Notes: a model not told the origin generated them from the sequence alone. 64,000 nt of DNA from an uncultured Bacteroidales bacterium (GCA_963844935.1 CAWJQH010000003.1:172430-236429), one strand, 5' to 3'; positions 2,434 through 62,392 are shown, counted from the stretch's first letter. Numbers and translations are program-made.

Positions 2434-2449
2434 AATGTGTTTTGAGCCT

Positions 2450-4276
2450 ATGAAGAACCAACTCAGGAGTGCAGCAACGGTAACCGGCAGGAACATGGCC
2501 GGTGCAAGAAGTCTCTGGCGGGCCAACGGCATGAAAGAAGAACACTTCGGTAAACCGGTCATTGCCATTGTCAACTCATTTTCCCAGTTCGTTCCGGGGC
2601 ATGTCCATCTGCACAGTATTGGTCAGGTCATTAAGGAGGAGATCGGGAAACATGGCCTTTTCGCAGCTGAATTCAATACAATAGCCATCGATGACGGAAT
2701 TGCGATGGGCCACGAAGGGATGCTCTATTCCTTACCCTCCAGGGAACTCATTGCCGACAGTGTCGAGTATGTGTGCAACGCCCACCGGGCAGATGCAATG
2801 ATATGTATCAGTAACTGCGACAAGATCACTCCCGGTATGCTGATGGCTGCCATGAGGCTGAACATACCGGCGGTTTTTGTTTCGGGAGGCCCGATGGAGG
2901 CCGGGAATCACAATAACAGGTCGCTTGACCTGATAGATGCGATGGTGTCTGCTGCCGACAGCACCGTGAGTGATTCAGACCTGAATGATATTGAAATGGC
3001 TGCCTGTCCTACCTGCGGGTCATGTTCAGGCATGTTCACGGCGAATTCAATGAATTGCCTGAACGAAGCGCTGGGCCTTGCACTTCCGGGCAATGGAACA
3101 ATAGTTGCCACCCACCGGAACCGCATGAGACTGTTTGAAAGAGCAGCGGGGCTGATTGTGGACCTGGCGAACAGATACTACTCAGAGGGTGATGACACAG
3201 TACTTCCAAGGTCAATTGCAACCAGGGAAGCCTTTAAAAACGCCATGTCGCTTGACATTGCAATGGGAGGATCGACAAACACCGTTCTTCACCTCCTGGC
3301 AATAGCGCATGAAGCCGGTGTTGATTTTTCAATGAAGGATATTGATGAACTTTCCCGGGAAGTCCCCACCATATGCAAAGTCTCCCCCAGTTCACATTAC
3401 CATATCCAGGATGTAAACCGTGCCGGCGGTATTTTTGCCATTCTTGGAGAATTGGAGCGAAACAATCTGATAGACAGCTCTGTAAGAAGGATAGACTATC
3501 CTACTCTTCATGAAGCAATTTCTGAATGGGATATTTCCGGAGATAATGCATTGCCCCTCGCATTTGATTACTGCAAAAGCGCCCCGGGAATGAAGAGAAG
3601 CCTTGAAATGGCTTCGCATGATACTCTTTACGACACGCTTGATACTGACCGGAAAAACGGATGCATAAGAAGTGTAAAATATCCTTATAACAAGGAAGGC
3701 GGCCTTGCTGTCCTTTACGGAAACATTGCGAAAAACGGCTGTATAGTCAAAACCGCAGGCATCGACCCTTCAATGTTTACATTTTCAGGCCATGCGGTGA
3801 TCTTCGAATCCCAGGAAGAAGCCGTGGAAGGAATACTGAATGATACTGTGGGCGCAGGAGAAGTTATCGTGATCAGGTACGAAGGTCCGAAAGGAGGGCC
3901 AGGTATGCAGGAGATGCTTTACCCTACATCATATCTGAAATCCAGGGGGCTTGACAGGAAATGTGCATTGATAACCGATGGCCGCTTTTCAGGAGGCACC
4001 TCGGGATTGTCTGTCGGTCATATCTCTCCGGAAGCAGCAGCAAAAGGAGGAATTGCAATTCTCAGGACAGGTGATCAGGTTGATATTGATATAGCAAACC
4101 GGAAGATAAATGTAAACCTTTCTGATAATGAGATCATTAAAAGGCATCAGGAGGAGGAGGCAAAGGGAGAAATGGCCTACAGGCCGAAAAACCGGCGGCG
4201 TGAAATACCATCTTCGCTGAAAGCTTATGCTGCAACGGTAAGTTCAGCTGACAGGGGGGCGGTGAGGATAATATGA
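2450..4276 (+). CDS. ilvD: dihydroxy-acid dehydratase
   Basis: [42 protein letters not shown] (Fe-S cysteines) and TDGRFSGGT. Track ORF starts at 2435; ATG 2450 (MKNQLRS) is preferred. Confidence 0.95.
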
Positions 4277-4315
4277 AGCATGGGGCATAGGGCAAGGAGC
4301 ATGGGGATTAAATCA

Positions 4316-4394
4316 GGCAATAGGCAGTAGAGGGCCGAGCGTTAAATCCCGACATGTTATGTCGGGATAGCGAAGGAGCCGGTTTGCAGGGGAG
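4316..4394. repeat. structured intergenic repeat, family 1, copy 1 (ilvD-ilvB spacer)
   Basis: The flanks GGCAATAGGCAGTAGAGGGCCGAG and TAGCGAAGGAGCCGGTTTGCAGGGGAG are nearly identical to 34768-34845. The central hairpin is a 9-bp stem with a 3-nt loop (4347-4355 / 4359-4367). Confidence 0.7.
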
Positions 4395-4454
4395 ACAAGG
4401 AGCACGGGGCACGGAGCAAAGAGATAAAAGAATGTGGACTAAGTCAGGATTAAA

Positions 4455-6194
4455 ATGAAGAAAAACAAGGAGTTAAATACAACAGTGGCGACTGGTAAGG
4501 ATCAGGAGCAGATTTCAGGAGCTGAGGCGCTTCTCAGGTGCCTTATCGAGGAAGGTGTGGATACTGTATTCGGTTACCCGGGAGGCGCCATCATGCCTGT
4601 CTATGACAAACTGCTTGATTATGAAGATAAGATCAGGCATATACTCACCCGTCACGAACAGGGAGCTGCACATGCAGCCCAGGCATATGCAATGGTTACC
4701 GGAAAACCCGGGGTCTGTTTCGCAACTTCCGGTCCCGGGGCAACCAACCTGGTAACGGGTATTGCCAATGCTTTCCTTGATTCAGTGCCTGTCGTTTTCA
4801 TCACTGCCCAGGTTGTATCAAACCTGATTGGTACTGACGCATTTCAGGAGACTGACATTCTTGGTGTTTCAATGCCTGTCACAAAATGGAACTGCCAGAT
4901 CAAAAGGCCGGAGGATCTGCCCGACACAATAGCAAAGGCATTCTACATTGCAAAGTCAGGCCGTCCCGGACCGGTGCTGGTTGACGTGGCCAAGGACGCC
5001 CAGATTGAAAAACTCAGTTTCAGGTACAGCAAATGTGAATACCTGAGAAGCTATAATCCCAGGATACCATTGCATACCAGGGAGATAGAGTCGGCAGCCA
5101 TTATGATCAACCATGCCGAGAAACCGTTAATTCTTGCCGGCCATGGTGTCCTGTTGTCGGGTGCCGAGAATGAACTAAAGGAACTGGCCGAGAAAGCCGG
5201 AATTCCTGTTGCCCTTACGCTGCTTGGACTCTCAGCCTTTCCCTACGGTCACAGACTGTATGCCGGGATGCTCGGCATGCACGGAAACCTCGGCCCGAAT
5301 GTTCTCACAAATGAGGCTGACCTGATTATTGCCATCGGAATGCGTTTTGATGACCGTGTGACAGGCAACCTGAAGAAATATGCAAAGAACGCAAGGATAA
5401 TACACATCGAGATAGATGAAGCAGAGATCAATAAGAATGTGCAGGTCGATCTTGAAATAAATAATGATGCCCGTGAAGTGCTGCGTCACCTGATACCGCT
5501 GGTGAAGGAAAATTCTTTTGCAAGATGGATAAGGGAATTCAGGATATGTGATAAAACAGAATATGATAAAGTCATCAGGCCCGAGACAGAACCGGAATCG
5601 GGAGAGATCAGAATGGGGGAAGTAGTACGCCTCGTGTCAGACCTGACCCACGGAGATGCAATAATTGTTACTGATGTCGGGCAAAACCAGATGTCTGCCG
5701 CCCGGTATTATAAATTCAAAAATCCAAACAGCCTGGTGACATCCGGCGGAATGGGAACAATGGGCTTCGGACTCCCGGCTTCTGTAGGCGCCAAGATCGG
5801 AAGACCTGACAAACAGGTTGTGGTTTTCCTTGGTGACGGCGGTTTCCAGATGACAATCCAGGAGCTTGGAACCATCCTTCAGTACCAGGTCCCGGTCAAG
5901 ATAATTATCCTGAATAACAGTTTCCTCGGGATGGTGAGACAGTGGCAGGATATGTTCTACAATAAAAGGTATGCCTCGACTGCCCTTGTCAATCCCGATT
6001 TCCTGAAGATTGCAGAGGGATTTGGGATTAGCTCAAAAAGAGTAACGGAAAGAAAGGATCTTGAAAAAAATCTGGCTGAGATGCTTGCGGCCGATGGGCC
6101 CTACCTGCTTGACGTAACAATAAGCAAGGAGGCAAATGTGCTGCCAATGGTTGAACCGGGTTCATCAGTCTCTGATGTAAGATTGACAAATTAA
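4455..6194 (+). CDS. ilvB: acetolactate synthase, large (catalytic) subunit
   Basis: ThDP-enzyme motifs [38 protein letters not shown] and LGDGGFQM; 579 aa. Confidence 0.93.
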
Positions 6195-33259: not shown

Positions 33260-33425
33260 AATTTGATTGAGTTAGAATGTTTATGGTTATAGTTGGTTGT
33301 AATAAATTGAATGTCAGTGACTTATAAATGCGGTTCTCTCCGGGTAAGGCAGAGCGTTAAATTACATTTCCGGTCAGACTTTCTTTGGATTTGGCATTTC
33401 GTAATTATGAACAAGTTTTTAACGT

Positions 33426-33812: not shown

Positions 33813-34760
33813 ATGGTACGTCTGATCGCCCTCATCATTTCAATAGCGCTGCAGATTATTGCTGCCGTCATCGCCCTCCGCTTCATGAAGATGACAAGGT
33901 ACAGGCTCTCCTGGATACTGCTCTCCATCTCCTTCGTGCTGATGTCGCTGCGAACGATGATCCAGCTGATAGAGTACTTCCAGGGCAAGCCGTCCTTTGA
34001 GCTCACAATGATGGATGACTGGATGAATGTGCTGATATCTGTGTTGATTATTTCCGGCGTAGTTCTTATAAGGGAACTCTTCACATCTCTCAAGCGGGCT
34101 GAGACCGACAGGATGCGGTCTGACCGCAGGCTGCTCAACGCCATCATCACCACCGAGGAGACAGAGAAGAAGAGGTTTGCCAAGGATCTGCACGACGGGC
34201 TCGGACCTCTTTTATCCACCGTGAAAATGTCGCTCTCGGCTCTTACACCCATGGTGTCTGATGCCGTGGGCAAGGAGATTCTCGGCAACACCAACCATGT
34301 TGTCAACGAGGCTCTCAGTACAATCAAGGAGATAGCAAACAACATGAGCCCTCATGTGCTGACAAACCTCGGTGTTGCCAGCGCCATTAGCACCTTCGCT
34401 GCAAAAGTGAACCAGACAAGGAGCGTCAGCATTGATTTCCGGACAAACATGGAAGGTGAACGGTTTGACACGGACAAGGAGGTGGTGATCTACAGGGCAG
34501 CCTGCGAGCTGATCAACAACGGAATGAAACACTCGGGAGCATCGAAGATTGAAATGGATCTGCACCGCCATCAAAAAATTATTACCTTGCAGTATCTTGA
34601 TAACGGGAGGGGATTTGACACAGAGATGCTGACCTCGGAAGAAGCTGTGGGCATGGGAATTCCGAACATCGAGACAAGGGTGAGGGCAGTGGACGGAGTA
34701 TTCCTGATAGAGAGCTCGAAGGGTAAGGGAACAAGCGCACTGATCAGGGTCAATTATTAA
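33813..34760 (+). CDS. membrane sensor histidine kinase (HisKA_3 / NarL-partner type)
   Basis: Three N-terminal TM helices, the H-box FAKDLHDGLGPLL, and HATPase_c boxes (ELINNGMKHSGA, DNGRGF, GMGIPNI). Confidence 0.85.
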   Translation: MVRLIALIISIALQIIAAVIALRFMKMTRYRLSWILLSISFVLMSLRTMIQLIEYFQGKPSFELTMMDDWMNVLISVLIISGVVLIRELFTSLKRAETDRMRSDRRLLNAIITTEETEKKRFAKDLHDGLGPLLSTVKMSLSALTPMVSDAVGKEILGNTNHVVNEALSTIKEIANNMSPHVLTNLGVASAISTFAAKVNQTRSVSIDFRTNMEGERFDTDKEVVIYRAACELINNGMKHSGASKIEMDLHRHQKIITLQYLDNGRGFDTEMLTSEEAVGMGIPNIETRVRAVDGVFLIESSKGKGTSALIRVNY

Positions 34761-34767
34761 GGCAGTA

Positions 34768-34845
34768 GGCAATAGGCAGTAGAGGGCCGAGAGTAAATAA
34801 TTTGCCCGGTGGGCAAATTTAGCGAGGAGCCAGATTGCAGGGGAG
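34768..34845. repeat. structured intergenic repeat, family 1, copy 2 (kinase - regulator spacer)
   Basis: Same flanks as 4316-4394. The central hairpin AATTTGCCC-GGT-GGGCAAATT (34799-34819) has the same 9-bp stem and 3-nt loop geometry but an unrelated sequence. Confidence 0.7.
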
Positions 34846-34914
34846 GTAAAGGGTAAGTGCAGAGGGCATGGATAAAAATATATTGCCCGCAGGGCATTAA
34901 GTATTGCAGAAAAA

Positions 34915-35556
34915 ATGGATAAAATAAGAATTGCACTCGCTGATGACCATCAGCTGTTCAGGAACGGACTGAAGATTTTACTGGGTAGCTTCAGTGAGTT
35001 TGAGGTGGTAGCCGAAGCTTCCAACGGCAATGAGATTCTGAGAGCCATGGAGACCAGCCCCTCCGATATCGTACTCATGGATATAAGCATGCCGGAGATG
35101 GACGGAGTGGAGGCAACGGGCATACTGTCGCGTCAGTTTCCCGGTACAAGAGTGATTGCTCTTTCAATGTACGGCGAAGAAGAATATTACTACAGGATGA
35201 TTGATGCCGGCGCAAAGGGCTTTATCCTCAAAGACTCAGACATAACCGACGTGCATGACGCAATCATCGCAGTATTCAAAGGCGGCAATTACTTCTCCCA
35301 GGAACTGCTCTACCATGTAATCAACCGCATCAAGAACAGGGAACAGGAGGTAAAGAGCTCAAGCCTCTCGAAACGTGAGAAGGAGATACTGCTGAAGATC
35401 TGTGAAGGACTTTCAAACCATGAAATTGCCGACACACTCTTCATAAGCAAACGCACCGTCGACAAGCACCGTGCCAACCTCCTGGCAAAGACGGGCTCAA
35501 AGAATACAGCCAGCCTCATTCTGTACGCCATAAAAAACAGGCTGATAGAGATCTGA
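34915..35556 (+). CDS. NarL/LuxR-family response regulator
   Basis: REC domain (IALADDH, VLMDISMPEMDG) plus a C-terminal LuxR HTH (LSKREKEILLKICEGLSNHEIADTLFISKRTVDKHRANLLAK). Confidence 0.9.
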   Translation: MDKIRIALADDHQLFRNGLKILLGSFSEFEVVAEASNGNEILRAMETSPSDIVLMDISMPEMDGVEATGILSRQFPGTRVIALSMYGEEEYYYRMIDAGAKGFILKDSDITDVHDAIIAVFKGGNYFSQELLYHVINRIKNREQEVKSSSLSKREKEILLKICEGLSNHEIADTLFISKRTVDKHRANLLAKTGSKNTASLILYAIKNRLIEI

Positions 35557-39732: not shown

Positions 39733-40755
39733 ATGTCAGATAACACCGCTTCTGCCCACGGAAATCCTATCGATGCGGTAATCCTGTGGGTTGACGGCAA
39801 TGACATCAGGATTACAGAAAAAAGGAATCATTACCTTTCTCTGGAAAATAAAGCCGGTGCCCACCAGGGAGCTCTTCCGACACGTTTCGCATCATCAGAC
39901 GAAATAAGGTATTGTGTCCTGTCAATTTTAACCTTTGCTCCTTTTATCAGGAATATATTCATTGTCACCGATGAACAGGACCCTGATCTTTATGATGATG
40001 TCAGGGCCAGGTTTCCCGAAAAGGCGGACTGTCTGAAAATCGTTGACCACAAGGAGATCTTCAGGGGTTACGAGCAGTATCTTCCGACTTTCAACAGCTC
40101 GTCAATTCAGGCTCTGATCTGGAGAATTGAAGGGCTCTCAGAAAGATTCATCTATTTTAATGATGATGTGATTCTTATAAGGGAAACAAAGGCCGGGGAC
40201 TGGTTTGCAGGTGAGAGCCCGGTTCTGATGGGCAAGTGGCTGTTCCCTCCCTACAGGAGGATCGCCGGAATTAACCTGAAAGCCTTAATAAACAAATATA
40301 TACTGAACAACAAGGATCACCAGCCCAGGATCTCATTTTATATCCGCCAGTGGAAGAGTGCGGTTGTGCTGGGGATGAAAGGGCGGTATTTTTTCCATGA
40401 TCACACACCTCATCCGATGAGGATAAAAACGCTTGAGAATTTTTTCGCAGCGAACAGGGAGCTGCTTGAAAAAACCATTTCATACCGCTTCAGGGATTCC
40501 GGGCAGATAATTGCCCCCTCTGTAGCCTATCATCTTGAGATCCTAAACGGCAACAGAAATTATGGAAAACTCAGGCTGGGGTATTTCCATCCTTACTATT
40601 CGGAGAATCGACTGAACAGAAGAATCAAACGCTGCATGAGTGACTCCCGGATTAAATTTATCTGCATTCAGAGCATAGAGCTGCTCAGCAGCAGGCAGCG
40701 GGAAAAAATTTTCAGGTGGATGGATACAATTTTAAATTTGCAACCAAAAACATGA
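39733..40755 (+). CDS. Stealth-family hexose-1-phosphoryltransferase (capsule phosphotransferase-like), paralog 1
   Basis: Stealth conserved regions: DAVILWVDGND (CR1), TRFASSDEIRYCVLSILTFAPFIRNIFIVTDEQ (CR2), and LPTFNSSSIQALIWRIEGLSERFIYFNDD (CR3). Confidence 0.8.
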   Translation: MSDNTASAHGNPIDAVILWVDGNDIRITEKRNHYLSLENKAGAHQGALPTRFASSDEIRYCVLSILTFAPFIRNIFIVTDEQDPDLYDDVRARFPEKADCLKIVDHKEIFRGYEQYLPTFNSSSIQALIWRIEGLSERFIYFNDDVILIRETKAGDWFAGESPVLMGKWLFPPYRRIAGINLKALINKYILNNKDHQPRISFYIRQWKSAVVLGMKGRYFFHDHTPHPMRIKTLENFFAANRELLEKTISYRFRDSGQIIAPSVAYHLEILNGNRNYGKLRLGYFHPYYSENRLNRRIKRCMSDSRIKFICIQSIELLSSRQREKIFRWMDTILNLQPKT

Positions 40756-41771
40756 TTTCCATGACAAGCAACAGACCTTCTGAAGCCAATCCTCCCATTG
40801 ATGTGGTGATAGCCTGGGTTGACGGCGATGACCCTAAACTGGCACAGAAGAGAAGCAATTATATTCATGGGACAGACATTCCCTTGGGGTCAGGTGCGCA
40901 CTCAACGCGTTTTGCCTCGTCGAATGAAATCCGTTATTGCGTCCTGTCTGTCCTGAGATTTGCCCCGTTTGTCAGGAACATCTTCATTGTCACCGATGAG
41001 CAGGATCCCGGAATCCATGATGACGTGCGAAAATATTTTCCTGAAAGGCTTGAATCAATAAGGATAGTTGATCATAAAGAGATCTTTGAGGGATACGAAA
41101 ACTGTTTGCCGACCTTCAACAGCATCTCCATTGCGAATATGATATGGAGAATAAAAGGCCTCTCTGAAAATTTTGTCTATTTCAATGATGATACTTTCCT
41201 GATAAGCAGCATAAAGCCCGAAGAGTGGTTCGTTAACGGCAGGCCTGTATTACGTGGCAGATGGGTCGCGGCAACAACTCCAAGGGCAATGTGGAACAGC
41301 ATCAGGATTGCATTCAACAGGCGTCTTCTCGGTAAAAAAGACTTTGAACCAAGGGCTTCCTTCCATCTGGGTCAGTGGAATGCTGCTGCATTGCTCGGAT
41401 TTAAATTCAGGTATTTCACAAACAGCCACACGCCGCACTCAGTCAACCGGAAGCTGGTTGAAGATTATTTCAGCAAAAACGACTCGGTCCTCAGGAAAAA
41501 CATTTCATTTCGTTTCCGCGACCATTCACAGTTCACTTTCATCTCACTTTCAAATCATCTGCAGCTTCTTGCCGGCAACAGGCATATTGCCGGACCGGCC
41601 CTGGCTTACCTTAAACCTCAGGGCCATGCAGATGATTACGTGGACAGGAAAATAGCTCTGTGTGAAAACAACCCGGTCATCAGGTTCATGTGCATTCAGG
41701 GCCTTGAAATGTGCAGAAATGAAGACCGGGAGAAGCTGTTCAGTTGGCTCGACAGGAGACTGGAGCTTTGA
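40752..41771 (+). CDS. Stealth-family hexose-1-phosphoryltransferase, paralog 2
   Basis: Same CR1-CR3 motifs (DVVIAWVDGDD; TRFASSNEIRYCVLSVLRFAPFVRNIFIVTDEQ; LPTFNSISIANMIWRIKGLSENFVYFNDD). It is collinear with paralog 1, and ATG 40752 overlaps the paralog 1 stop (ATGA). Confidence 0.8.
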   Translation: MISMTSNRPSEANPPIDVVIAWVDGDDPKLAQKRSNYIHGTDIPLGSGAHSTRFASSNEIRYCVLSVLRFAPFVRNIFIVTDEQDPGIHDDVRKYFPERLESIRIVDHKEIFEGYENCLPTFNSISIANMIWRIKGLSENFVYFNDDTFLISSIKPEEWFVNGRPVLRGRWVAATTPRAMWNSIRIAFNRRLLGKKDFEPRASFHLGQWNAAALLGFKFRYFTNSHTPHSVNRKLVEDYFSKNDSVLRKNISFRFRDHSQFTFISLSNHLQLLAGNRHIAGPALAYLKPQGHADDYVDRKIALCENNPVIRFMCIQGLEMCRNEDREKLFSWLDRRLEL

Positions 41772-61248: not shown

Positions 61249-61280
61249 GATTTGCGATTTGCGATTTGCGATTTGCGATT
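61249..61280. repeat. heptamer tandem array (GATTTGC x 4.6)
   Basis: GATTTGC is repeated perfectly four times plus a partial copy, starting 8 nt after the metG stop. Confidence 0.9.
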
Positions 61281-61321
61281 AAATGCTTCCGATGACTGAC
61301 TTGCGAATTAGCTGACCCTTA

Positions 61322-61356
61322 AATTCTTAATTCTTAACTCTTAATTCTTAATTCCC
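61322..61356. repeat. heptamer tandem array (AATTCTT x 5, two variant units)
   Basis: AATTCTT AATTCTT AACTCTT AATTCTT AATTCCC, abutting the stop codon of the convergent SPOR gene. Confidence 0.9.
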
Positions 61357-61357
61357 A

Positions 61358-62392
61358 CTATTGCCTGCTCTTATGTATCCAGGCTCCCGGAAAGTTTTTG
61401 ATTATCCTGCTATGGGCAGCCTTTGCCTCCTCAACCGAGTCAAATGATACAGCGCTGACGCGAAGGAAGCCGTCCGGCCCGCCGGTCATTTCAGGGTCAT
61501 AACCGATCTTCCTTAGCTTTTCTATCATTGTCAGTGCATTATCTTCCGTCTTGAAGCTTCCGATAATCAGCAAATACCTGTATTCATGGACAACCACCGC
61601 CTGCTGTACAGGTTTTACCGGTTCAGGATCAGGAGCAGGAACAACGGCGGCAACAGGCGGCTCAGGAACCGGTTGTTCGGCTACCGCCGCTGCGGTGTCA
61701 GCGGTCTCTATGACTGTCGTTTCAGGCTCAATATATGCCGTGTCTGCCACAATCTGTTCCCGGTTGAACTCCAGCTCGGCATTGGCCAGCGGATTAAGGG
61801 TGGATTCCTCCATCCTGCCCCTGAACAGGTTATCATTGAAAGGAACAAGGGCAAGGGCTATCAGCACCGGTACTATTACAGCTGCCCTGGTCAGAAGTCG
61901 CTTCATCGAAGGCTGGCTTACGGCAGGTTCATGGTGATGTTCAAGCATCTTCTTCCGTACGTCGAAGTCGCTTACCGGTCTCCTCTGGTAAGAGGTAAGC
62001 CCGTATGAAGAAAGGAGATAATTTACTGTGTTGTCAGGTTCAAAGATTACAGTCCCTTCGCGGTTGAGCGAAAAGGTTCCGAGATGATCAAGGTTCAGAA
62101 TGGTCCCGGCCATTATTTTGCCCCTGAGTTCTTCAGCCCAGGTGCCGATCATATCACGTGACTCACTGTAGGAGATCTTCAGGTGCGAGGAGACATGCCC
62201 TATCAGCAGACCGTCATTGCCGGTGAGATGGCGGTTGAAAGTTATCCGTCTTACAGGGGGGTAAAAAAGCCCCTCGTTACGGTCAATATGCGAAGGAAAA
62301 TAGTTCCCGATAAATGCACCAAACCCCGGTATAATGACACAATCGTGTTTGAAAAGCAGTTCCCTGATGTGTACGCTGATATCCTTCGCCAT
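61358..62392 (-). CDS. HU-like N-terminal domain / C-terminal SPOR (peptidoglycan-binding) domain protein
   Basis: N-terminus HIRELLFKHDCVIIPGFGAFIGNY (HU-CCDC81-like), a central TM and Pro/Ala-rich linker, and a C-terminal SPOR domain (YLLIIGSFKTEDNALTMIEKLRKIGYD...). Confidence 0.75.
   Translation of the reverse strand: MAKDISVHIRELLFKHDCVIIPGFGAFIGNYFPSHIDRNEGLFYPPVRRITFNRHLTGNDGLLIGHVSSHLKISYSESRDMIGTWAEELRGKIMAGTILNLDHLGTFSLNREGTVIFEPDNTVNYLLSSYGLTSYQRRPVSDFDVRKKMLEHHHEPAVSQPSMKRLLTRAAVIVPVLIALALVPFNDNLFRGRMEESTLNPLANAELEFNREQIVADTAYIEPETTVIETADTAAAVAEQPVPEPPVAAVVPAPDPEPVKPVQQAVVVHEYRYLLIIGSFKTEDNALTMIEKLRKIGYDPEMTGGPDGFLRVSAVSFDSVEEAKAAHSRIIKNFPGAWIHKSRQ

Follow-up and report, generated by a model that had tools for sequence, protein, structure and literature searches.

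What is the structured stretch that lies between ilvD and ilvB in this genome, and why do its flanks recur elsewhere in the same sequence around a hairpin of unrelated sequence? In the window, by which we mean the whole 64,000-nt stretch of DNA analyzed, from an uncultured Bacteroidales bacterium, copy 1 (4315-4394) follows ilvD (2435-4276) and precedes ilvB/ilvN, and copy 2 (34760-34846) lies between a HisKA_3 kinase gene (33813-34760) and a gene for a LuxR-type response regulator (34915-35556). In both, shared arms enclose a perfect 9-bp stem with a 3-nt loop (4347-4367 and 34799-34819), and the two stems are unrelated. The initial annotation had quoted the strings and coordinates of both copies correctly, including these stems and the heptamer units at 4278-4305 and 4395-4422, except that the left-arm identity spans 25 nt and not 24 (25/25, 4315-4339 against 34767-34791; blastn-short E = 1e-8, within the window). 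The right arms (4368-4394 and 34820-34845) differ by one indel and two substitutions, as it had stated. The parts are as follows.

4278-4305, plus strand: left degenerate heptamers GCATGGG GCATAGG GCAAGGA GCATGGG, read directly
4306-4314, plus strand: linker GATTAAATC from the GCAYGGR array to the element, from spacer comparison
4315-4346, plus strand: copy 1 left arm, AGGCAAT AGGCAGT followed by AG-AGGGCCGAG-CGTTAAA
4347-4367, plus strand: copy 1 stem-loop, TCCCGACAT-GTT-ATGTCGGGA, 9 bp with a triloop
4368-4394, plus strand: copy 1 right arm, TAGCGAAGGAGCCGGTTTGCAGGGGAG, kept in 13 of 13 genome loci
4395-4422, plus strand: right degenerate heptamers ACAAGGA GCACGGG GCACGGA GCAAAGA, from TRF and direct reading
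34760-34798, plus strand: copy 2 left arm, AGGCAGT AGGCAAT AGGCAGT followed by AG-AGGGCCGAG-AGTAAAT
34799-34819, plus strand: copy 2 stem-loop, AATTTGCCC-GGT-GGGCAAATT, identical in loci L031, L058, and L123
34820-34846, plus strand: copy 2 right arm, TAGCGA-GGAGCCAGATTGCAGGGGAGG, from blastn-short and direct reading
61322-61371, minus strand: core-less relative, GAGCAGGCAATAGTG and then (GGAATTA)n heptamers, with the core-less form at 61355-61371

Both copies begin close to a stop codon. The array at 4278-4305 starts 2 nt past that of ilvD (4274-4276), and the first base of the copy 2 left arm is the last base of the kinase stop codon (34760). The array at 4395-4422 continues the GCAYGGR array of relatives, which fills the ilvD-ilvB spacer free of any core in L135 and L136; at the site of the linker, L138 has TAAATC and L134 has TAATTA. 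Within the left arm of copy 1, the AGGCAAT and AGGCAGT units are specific to one subfamily (A, defined below), and AG-AGGGCCGAG-CGTTAAA is the family-wide core arm. Its hairpin type is also found in L004, L064, L138, and many copies of subfamily D, and copy 2 has orthologues in L031 and L058. TRF reported arrays at 4399-4418, 34760-34782, 61249-61280, and 61322-61354, only the first two of them around the copies because the arrays there are degenerate. The heptamer locus at 61249-61371 consists of GATTTGC x4.6 (61249-61280) and AATTCTT x4.7 flanking a 41-nt center; on its minus strand, GAGCAGGCAATAGTG lies directly 3′ of an apparent stop codon (TAA, read by eye), and the form at 61322-61371 is the same (AGGCART)n-AGTG that occupies the core-less spacers of L134, L139, L141, and L143. 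A further "shorter related stretch" had been proposed at 33342-33362, which we discard as a chance 11-nt exact match (E = 2.3) that the covariance model missed.

No terminator is predicted on the plus strand at either window hairpin, and no T-run follows either of them on that strand; from this and from their position, we infer that both copies are transcribed. The window genes are devoid of Shine-Dalgarno (SD) sequences (6-mer, 0 of 47 long ORFs) and AAGGAG occurs three times in the first spacer against 0.24 expected, in agreement with what had been noted. Two other features of the window were recorded. Upstream of the start of the response-regulator gene, TGCCC-GCA-GGGCA forms a small hairpin with an AT-rich run after it (34884-34896); it is kept in L031 and L058 and has a terminator-like score on the minus strand. 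At 39765-41099, direct repeats about 1025 nt apart with 74-78% identity (39880-40001 and 40905-41026, among others) are probably tandem paralogous genes.

The element is far from confined to this genome. A search with the exact left-arm 20-mer returned 13 loci, spread over about 10 species-level MAGs that bear the labels Bacteroidales, Rikenellaceae, or 'Rikenella', and in all 13 the right arm, which was no part of the search pattern, is conserved and the hairpin is different. A looser pattern fixing only GGGCCGAG...GGAGCCNGNTTGCAGG matched at least 120 metagenome contigs, and nhmmer extracted 149 copies among the matches listed. Since the same element recurs in about 10 independent MAGs and at least 120 metagenome contigs, the similarity is neither due to chance nor an artefact of assembly duplication, which had been raised as a concern about the two window copies. 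Genes typical of Bacteroidota (PorP/SprF, CHU_C, a SusC-like receptor) adjoin the subfamilies other than A, the RelA neighbor of one copy is closest to proteins of Bacteroidia/Bacteroidales MAGs, and genes of Bacteroidia type stand beside all subfamilies. The initial annotation had recognized no described family, and neither did we: Rfam gave no match across the whole window at gathering thresholds and, with E<=10 as the cut-off, only two nonsense matches of 8.7 bits for 4250-4470; matches to the element were likewise lacking in plasmids, viral contigs, and phages; and it was not found in the searchable literature by sequence strings and keywords. A known RNA family and a phage or plasmid origin were therefore set aside. 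The window stretches are copies of a widespread, undescribed family of small repeats in environmental Bacteroidales.

One unit is about 85-100 nt long and consists of a left arm, a stem-loop, and a right arm. The left arm is invariant and purine-rich, ending in AG-AGGGCCGAG-CGTTAAG, of which GGGCCGAG-CGTTAAG is present in all subfamilies; the stem has 9-10 bp and an NGT triloop (66 of 104 unique copies), and its sequence is free provided that pairing is kept; the right arm, TTTAGCGA-AGGAGCC-NGNTTGCAGGGRAGG, is again invariant. The family-wide core is thus GGGCCGAG-CGTTAAG-[stem-loop]-TTTAGCGA-AGGAGCC-NGNTTGCAGGG, and the subfamilies are set by the sequence outside it. Subfamily A, to which the window copies belong, has (AGGCART)n before the core and often GGCAATAGTG after it; its unit forms the 3′ end of an (AGGCART)n array that starts at or just past the stop codon of the upstream gene, and often terminates in a second AGGCAATAG(TG). 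In subfamilies B and C, an upstream pyrimidine run is complementary to the purine run after GCA, and subfamily D/E has a sharp left border at TAAC and a conserved right extension of about 500 nt.

When 111 distinct copies were aligned to the covariance model (R1), the central helix showed double changes at 9 of 9 pairs, with 97.8% of cells paired against 27-47% in slid controls, and none of 500 shuffles reached the observed covariation of the structure as a whole. The structure-preserving variation suspected from two copies is thus borne out, with 61 distinct stems among the 104 unique copies. Beyond this helix, the inner flank helices are uninformative because they never vary, and a GCAG/UUGC helix, 87.6% paired, hardly covaries at all. 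Arms of the same copy have no pairing advantage over arms taken from other copies in subfamily A (-11.5 vs -12.4 kcal/mol), so that no outer pairing is seen; such pairing appears in subfamily C (z = -1.95) and part of B. A long hairpin closed by the outer arms was consequently rejected for subfamily A. For these reasons, only the central stem-loop is structurally proven, and what is conserved in the arms is their sequence. The stem has G:T and A:C mispairs in about equal number (7 vs 6), apart from one fixed G.T pair, so that they pick out no strand.

Several copies depart from this plan. Both arms are kept and the stem-loop is lost in L011:3625-3693 (CGTTAAGAAA joined directly to TAGCG) and L012:4607-4672 (CGTATTTTAGCG), both from one MAG, Salar de Ascotan ASE9. 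At L001:7233-7474, two tandem copies lie 155 nt apart with a masked N run between them, amid long GGCAGTC/AGCAGCC heptamer arrays. In L116, 11.5 kb contain three copies (819-905, 1842-1928, and 6012-6096) that share longer identical flanks (TTTCCGTAAGGGATGCACTGAAGAG ... GGAGTGGTGTGAGCGG), which points to the element being part of a larger repeat or of duplicated genes at this locus.

Comparison with relatives indicates how stable the window copies are. We read the ilvD-ilvB spacers along a graded series of IlvD homologues. At 97% IlvD identity (L138), the spacer has the same element with the same hairpin; at 96% (L139 and L134), it has only (AGGCART)n and then AGTG; at 93% and 91% (L135 and L136), only GCAYGGR heptamers; and at 92% and 89% (L140 and L137), it is bare. 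The kinase-regulator spacer has a similar record: L031 and L058 carry the window's element; L063, with genes about 78% identical, carries an element with another hairpin type and different outer flanks; L141 and L143 have core-less (AGGCART)n-AGTG arrays; and L142 has a spacer of just 30 nt in which GCAGTAGAGG from the edge of the left arm remains. The core is thus missing at the same sites in relatives with 89-96% IlvD or 85-96% response-regulator identity, and the number and type of heptamer units vary among L134-L143 at these sites. Because close relatives lack the core at the same sites, the cores of the window copies would be recent and dispensable for both operons, and the core is apparently gained, lost, or replaced on short evolutionary time scales. 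As its presence fluctuates between close relatives, the family appears to behave as a mobile passenger and not as an ilv regulator. AGGCARTAG direct repeats bracket the core in 21 of 35 A copies, compared with 7% in the control. The two differ systematically, however, with AGGCAGTAG on the left and AGGCAATAG on the right, so we regard them as fixed parts of the element and reject a fresh target-site duplication; at the ilv site, a 15-nt duplication can be suspected, but the periodicity of the array makes it ambiguous.

The core sequence is highly constrained where it is present. Between the window and L058, it is identical at 62 of 62 positions, whereas third codon positions of the adjacent genes agree at 70% (n = 214), and drift alone would give this identity with a probability of about 0.7^62 = 2.5e-10. 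The same comparison gives 61 of 62 against 84% for L031 and 62 of 63 against 95% for L138. As core identity far exceeds that of third codon positions, the core appears to be either under strong purifying selection or recently homogenized. A degenerate copy at L134:51-126 (minus strand) has an intact hairpin of the TCCCGACAT type and two diverged arms (GAAGCGAC for GGGCCGAG and GGAGCTG for GGAGCC), showing that the arms can apparently decay once a copy is, presumably, inactive.

The genes beside the element are diverse and share no function; no protein family, transposases included, recurs next to it, and no protein gene travels with it, which led us to reject a gene-specific riboswitch or leader. 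All examined copies are intergenic, at a median of 28.5 nt from the end of the upstream ORF. Across 127 loci after dereplication, with genes called by a crude ORF heuristic, 23 flanking gene pairs are convergent and 7 divergent. With the same gene calls, subfamily A has the orientation of its upstream gene in 25 of 33 cases (25 vs 8, p = 0.005), and subfamily D/E has the opposite polarity, with 1 of 15 (1 vs 14, p = 0.001). In two different MAGs (L008:56-218 and L009:3608-3775), an element starts a few nucleotides past the 3′ terminus of tRNA-Thr(CGT), and the genes upstream are the same in both, so that its position there is conserved.

Loci of subfamily D/E, such as L125, L066, L093, and L060, are unidirectional runs of unrelated single genes with a layout resembling a cassette array. 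Of the 53 ORFs in these loci, 47 share one orientation, opposite to that of the element, and the encoded products include ParE toxins, ankyrin, Kelch, and serpin proteins, DUF5128 lipoproteins, hydrolases, an FGE-sulfatase, and a DDE transposase. Repeats follow each other every 1.5-2.3 kb in several loci, and some spacings reach 4-7.5 kb; no integrase was found in the sampled D-locus fragments. D elements have a sharp outer border with TAAC...GTTA at the two ends, which fits the full R''/R' consensus in part. At L033:1392-1900, a conserved non-coding stretch about 500 nt long has the D core as its sharp left end (TAAC, immediately followed by GGCCCGGCAAT), and this stretch is also present in L024, L060, L062, L084, L091, L093, L122, and L125. 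Its modules are GTGTCGCGGTACAA, GTCACGGTGCAAGGAGG, and GC-rich hairpins with GAAGCGAAGCG loops; Rfam gave no match for the stretch, which is a mosaic of small repeats or else a long RNA. Locus L026 has a bona fide group II intron with an RVT_1 + GIIM maturase (845-2696, locus minus strand; 64.8 bits for RF00029 and 59.3 bits for RF01999). It lies about 0.7 kb away from a D-type element and on the same strand as that element, and its 5′ exon is cut off, as the contig ends 23 nt upstream of the intron.

We favor the explanation that the element is a non-autonomous structured repeat of the REP/BOX kind, spread and lost at the DNA level, with the window copies as co-transcribed passengers in two operons, and we give it about an even chance of being correct. 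A trans-acting factor would recognize the arms together with the extruded hairpin, the unit would spread and be lost as DNA, and recombination between the bracketing AGGCARTAG repeats would produce core-less arrays; the minus-strand form at 61355-61371 matches the product expected from such recombination. The window copies would be dispensable passengers co-transcribed in the ilv and kinase-regulator operons, and their sole likely effect would be a stable intercistronic RNA stem-loop, for example as a barrier to 3′-exonucleases. A miniature mobile insertion with a replaceable hairpin was among the original suggestions, and mobile insertion is the best-supported candidate because close relatives have these spacers without the core, because the L063 copy in the same spacer has a different hairpin, and because hairpin types are shuffled across the arm subfamilies. 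The hairpin is not an independent mobile cassette, however, as it was almost never found without arms. Against a mobile repeat, we found neither a mobilizing enzyme nor terminal inverted repeats nor a clean target-site duplication, and the arms hardly differ between subfamilies, or between loci with genes of only about 78% identity. Such invariance exceeds what is usual for selfish DNA and would be compatible with a functional RNA or a protein-binding site as well; the sense bias of subfamily A would also be predicted by a role at the RNA level. A disseminated, functional cis-acting RNA module, transcribed with the upstream gene and kept invariant in its arms by selection on the RNA, is the main, if rather improbable, alternative. 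In it, a conserved protein or the ribosome would bind the stem-loop and its conserved single-stranded arms (including GCGAAGGAGCC), or these would fix a point of mRNA processing or 3′-end stability. The sense bias (25 vs 8), the short distance of all copies from the stop codon (median 28.5 nt), core conservation far above that of neighboring synonymous sites, the strong covariation with its NGT loops, and the conservation of AAGGAG in a genome whose genes lack SD sequences all agree with such a module, and with no plus-strand terminator, read-through is expected. However, the ilv operon does without the element in close relatives (89-96% IlvD identity), the kinase-regulator pair of L142 runs with a 30-nt spacer, and the polarity of subfamily D is reversed (1 vs 14). 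The symmetry of the stem mispairs (one fixed G.T pair aside), the outer helices of subfamily A, which do not covary, the lack of an Rfam match, and flanking genes that share no function also argue against it.

An attC-like site, folding as single-stranded DNA and recognized by a tyrosine recombinase, with D elements marking cassettes and the window A copies as degenerate solo sites, seems unlikely. The hallmark of attC, a shape that is kept while the sequence is free, is present, and the D/E loci supply co-oriented ORFs (47 of 53) of unrelated single-gene functions, repeats every 1.5-2.3 kb in several loci, sharp outer borders with TAAC...GTTA ends, and a group II intron in one case. Yet the window's subfamily A has no such ends and does not occur in arrays, A and D are oppositely oriented relative to genes, and the sampled D loci revealed no integrase. 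Moreover, the invariant inner arms sit where attC sites vary, the conserved non-coding extension of D units is absent from attC sites, and some distances between repeats (4-7.5 kb) are too long for cassettes. We consider it very improbable that the element is an intrinsic terminator or attenuator with a conserved context, ending or dampening transcription after the upstream gene. Many copies do combine an A-run, a GC-rich stem, and a T-run, as in GAAATTGCCC-GGT-GGGCAATTTT, and the family prefers the 3′ ends of genes (convergent vs divergent, 23 vs 7), but neither window hairpin has a plus-strand T-run or a terminator call, the second most common hairpin type (TCCCGACAT) is without any U-tract, and the hairpin-less L011 and L012 copies keep their arms. 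A terminator would also leave 50 nt of invariant arm sequence unexplained, and both window copies lie between adjacent, co-oriented genes that resemble single operons. More speculatively, the arms and the free stem could together be the site of an uncharacterized recombination or transposition system of Bacteroidia or, equally, a mobile RNA module with a cellular partner, a proposal that we find doubtful. In the former version, a unit of about 80 nt would be inserted and excised at heptamer arrays just past stop codons, and the unidirectional single-gene arrays of subfamily D would be integron-like cassettes with a new type of site. In the latter, insertion would provide genes with a ready-made 3′-UTR signal whose arms bind a conserved cellular partner.

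The family also explains spacer differences of more than 100 nt inside conserved operons of near-identical MAGs, and it is abundant in uncultured lineages of sediment, wetland, and digester. Its design is unusual, with invariant arms, a free stem, and a tie to fast-evolving heptamer arrays beginning at stop codons, and if the arms are the site of a recombinase or an RNA-binding protein, they would offer a direct handle on an unknown system of mobility or post-transcriptional control. The covariance model and about 150 aligned copies provide a starting point. Annotators should be cautioned that its purine-rich AAGGAG tracts are not to be read as ribosome-binding sites.

In well-studied bacteria, small structured repeats such as REP, BOX, and Correia influence how operons are expressed and how plastic genomes are, and in the searchable literature nothing comparable was found described for Bacteroidales. 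Like the RAYT-mobilized REP/BIME of Enterobacteria and Pseudomonas, the element is short, non-coding, multi-copy, hairpin-forming, and gene-less. Both are extragenic, favor gene 3′ ends and intercistronic spacers, are co-transcribed, and vary in presence among related strains; in our family, all examined copies are intergenic, with the preference for convergent pairs (23 vs 7) and the median of 28.5 nt given above. What is conserved in REPs is the sequence of the palindrome, which differs from one species to another. In our element, by contrast, the stem is free (61 variants, and unrelated in the two window copies) and the arms are invariant across many species; GTAG is confined to the heptamer of subfamily A, and REPs are without flanking heptamer arrays.

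Integron attC sites (59-base elements) share with the element conserved ends around an imperfect palindrome of variable sequence and kept structure, here with covariation at 9 of 9 hairpin pairs, and subfamily D occurs in a similar setting of unidirectional runs of unrelated small genes that include toxin-antitoxin pairs. Unlike attC sites, which close promoterless cassettes at their 3′ ends in arrays beside intI, the window copies are solitary in the ilvD-ilvB and kinase-regulator spacers of housekeeping operons. In place of the R'' (RYYYAAC) and R' (GTTRRRY) boxes, subfamily A has AGGCART heptamers at its left end and GCAGGGGAGG at its right. The element also holds about 50 nt of invariant inner sequence, and attC sites are variable where these inner arms lie.

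BOX of Streptococcus pneumoniae and Correia/NEMIS of Neisseria resemble the element in being modular, structured, non-autonomous, intergenic, and transcribed with their neighbors, and they can alter mRNA stability and processing. Their sequences and host phyla are unrelated to it, however, and BOX modules are conserved in sequence throughout. Correia has terminal inverted repeats and a TA duplication, and our element has neither: its arms are not mutual inverted repeats, and the flanking direct repeats belong to the element itself, which also sets it apart from MITEs. The T-run of an intrinsic terminator is missing from the window copies, and TTTT follows the stem in many other members of the family.

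The flanks have parallels of their own. TAACTGA repeats have been described in Beggiatoaceae, Cyanobacteria, and some Bacteroidetes (MacGregor 2015, PMC4679880), and heptamer simple-sequence repeats by Mrazek et al. 2007 (as cited in PMC4679880). Like these and the cyanobacterial STRR, the window arrays are 7-nt direct intergenic repeats, oriented to genes and quickly variable in copy number between relatives, and they belong to this known but unexplained class (MacGregor 2015, PMC4679880). The likeness extends to the flanks and not to the core, as the repeats reported in PMC4679880 and, as cited there, in Mrazek et al. 2007 are arrays only, with no stem-loop core and with different heptamers. 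The core itself departs from the defining features of REP, attC, MITE/Correia, and intrinsic terminators, and it behaves like REP and attC.
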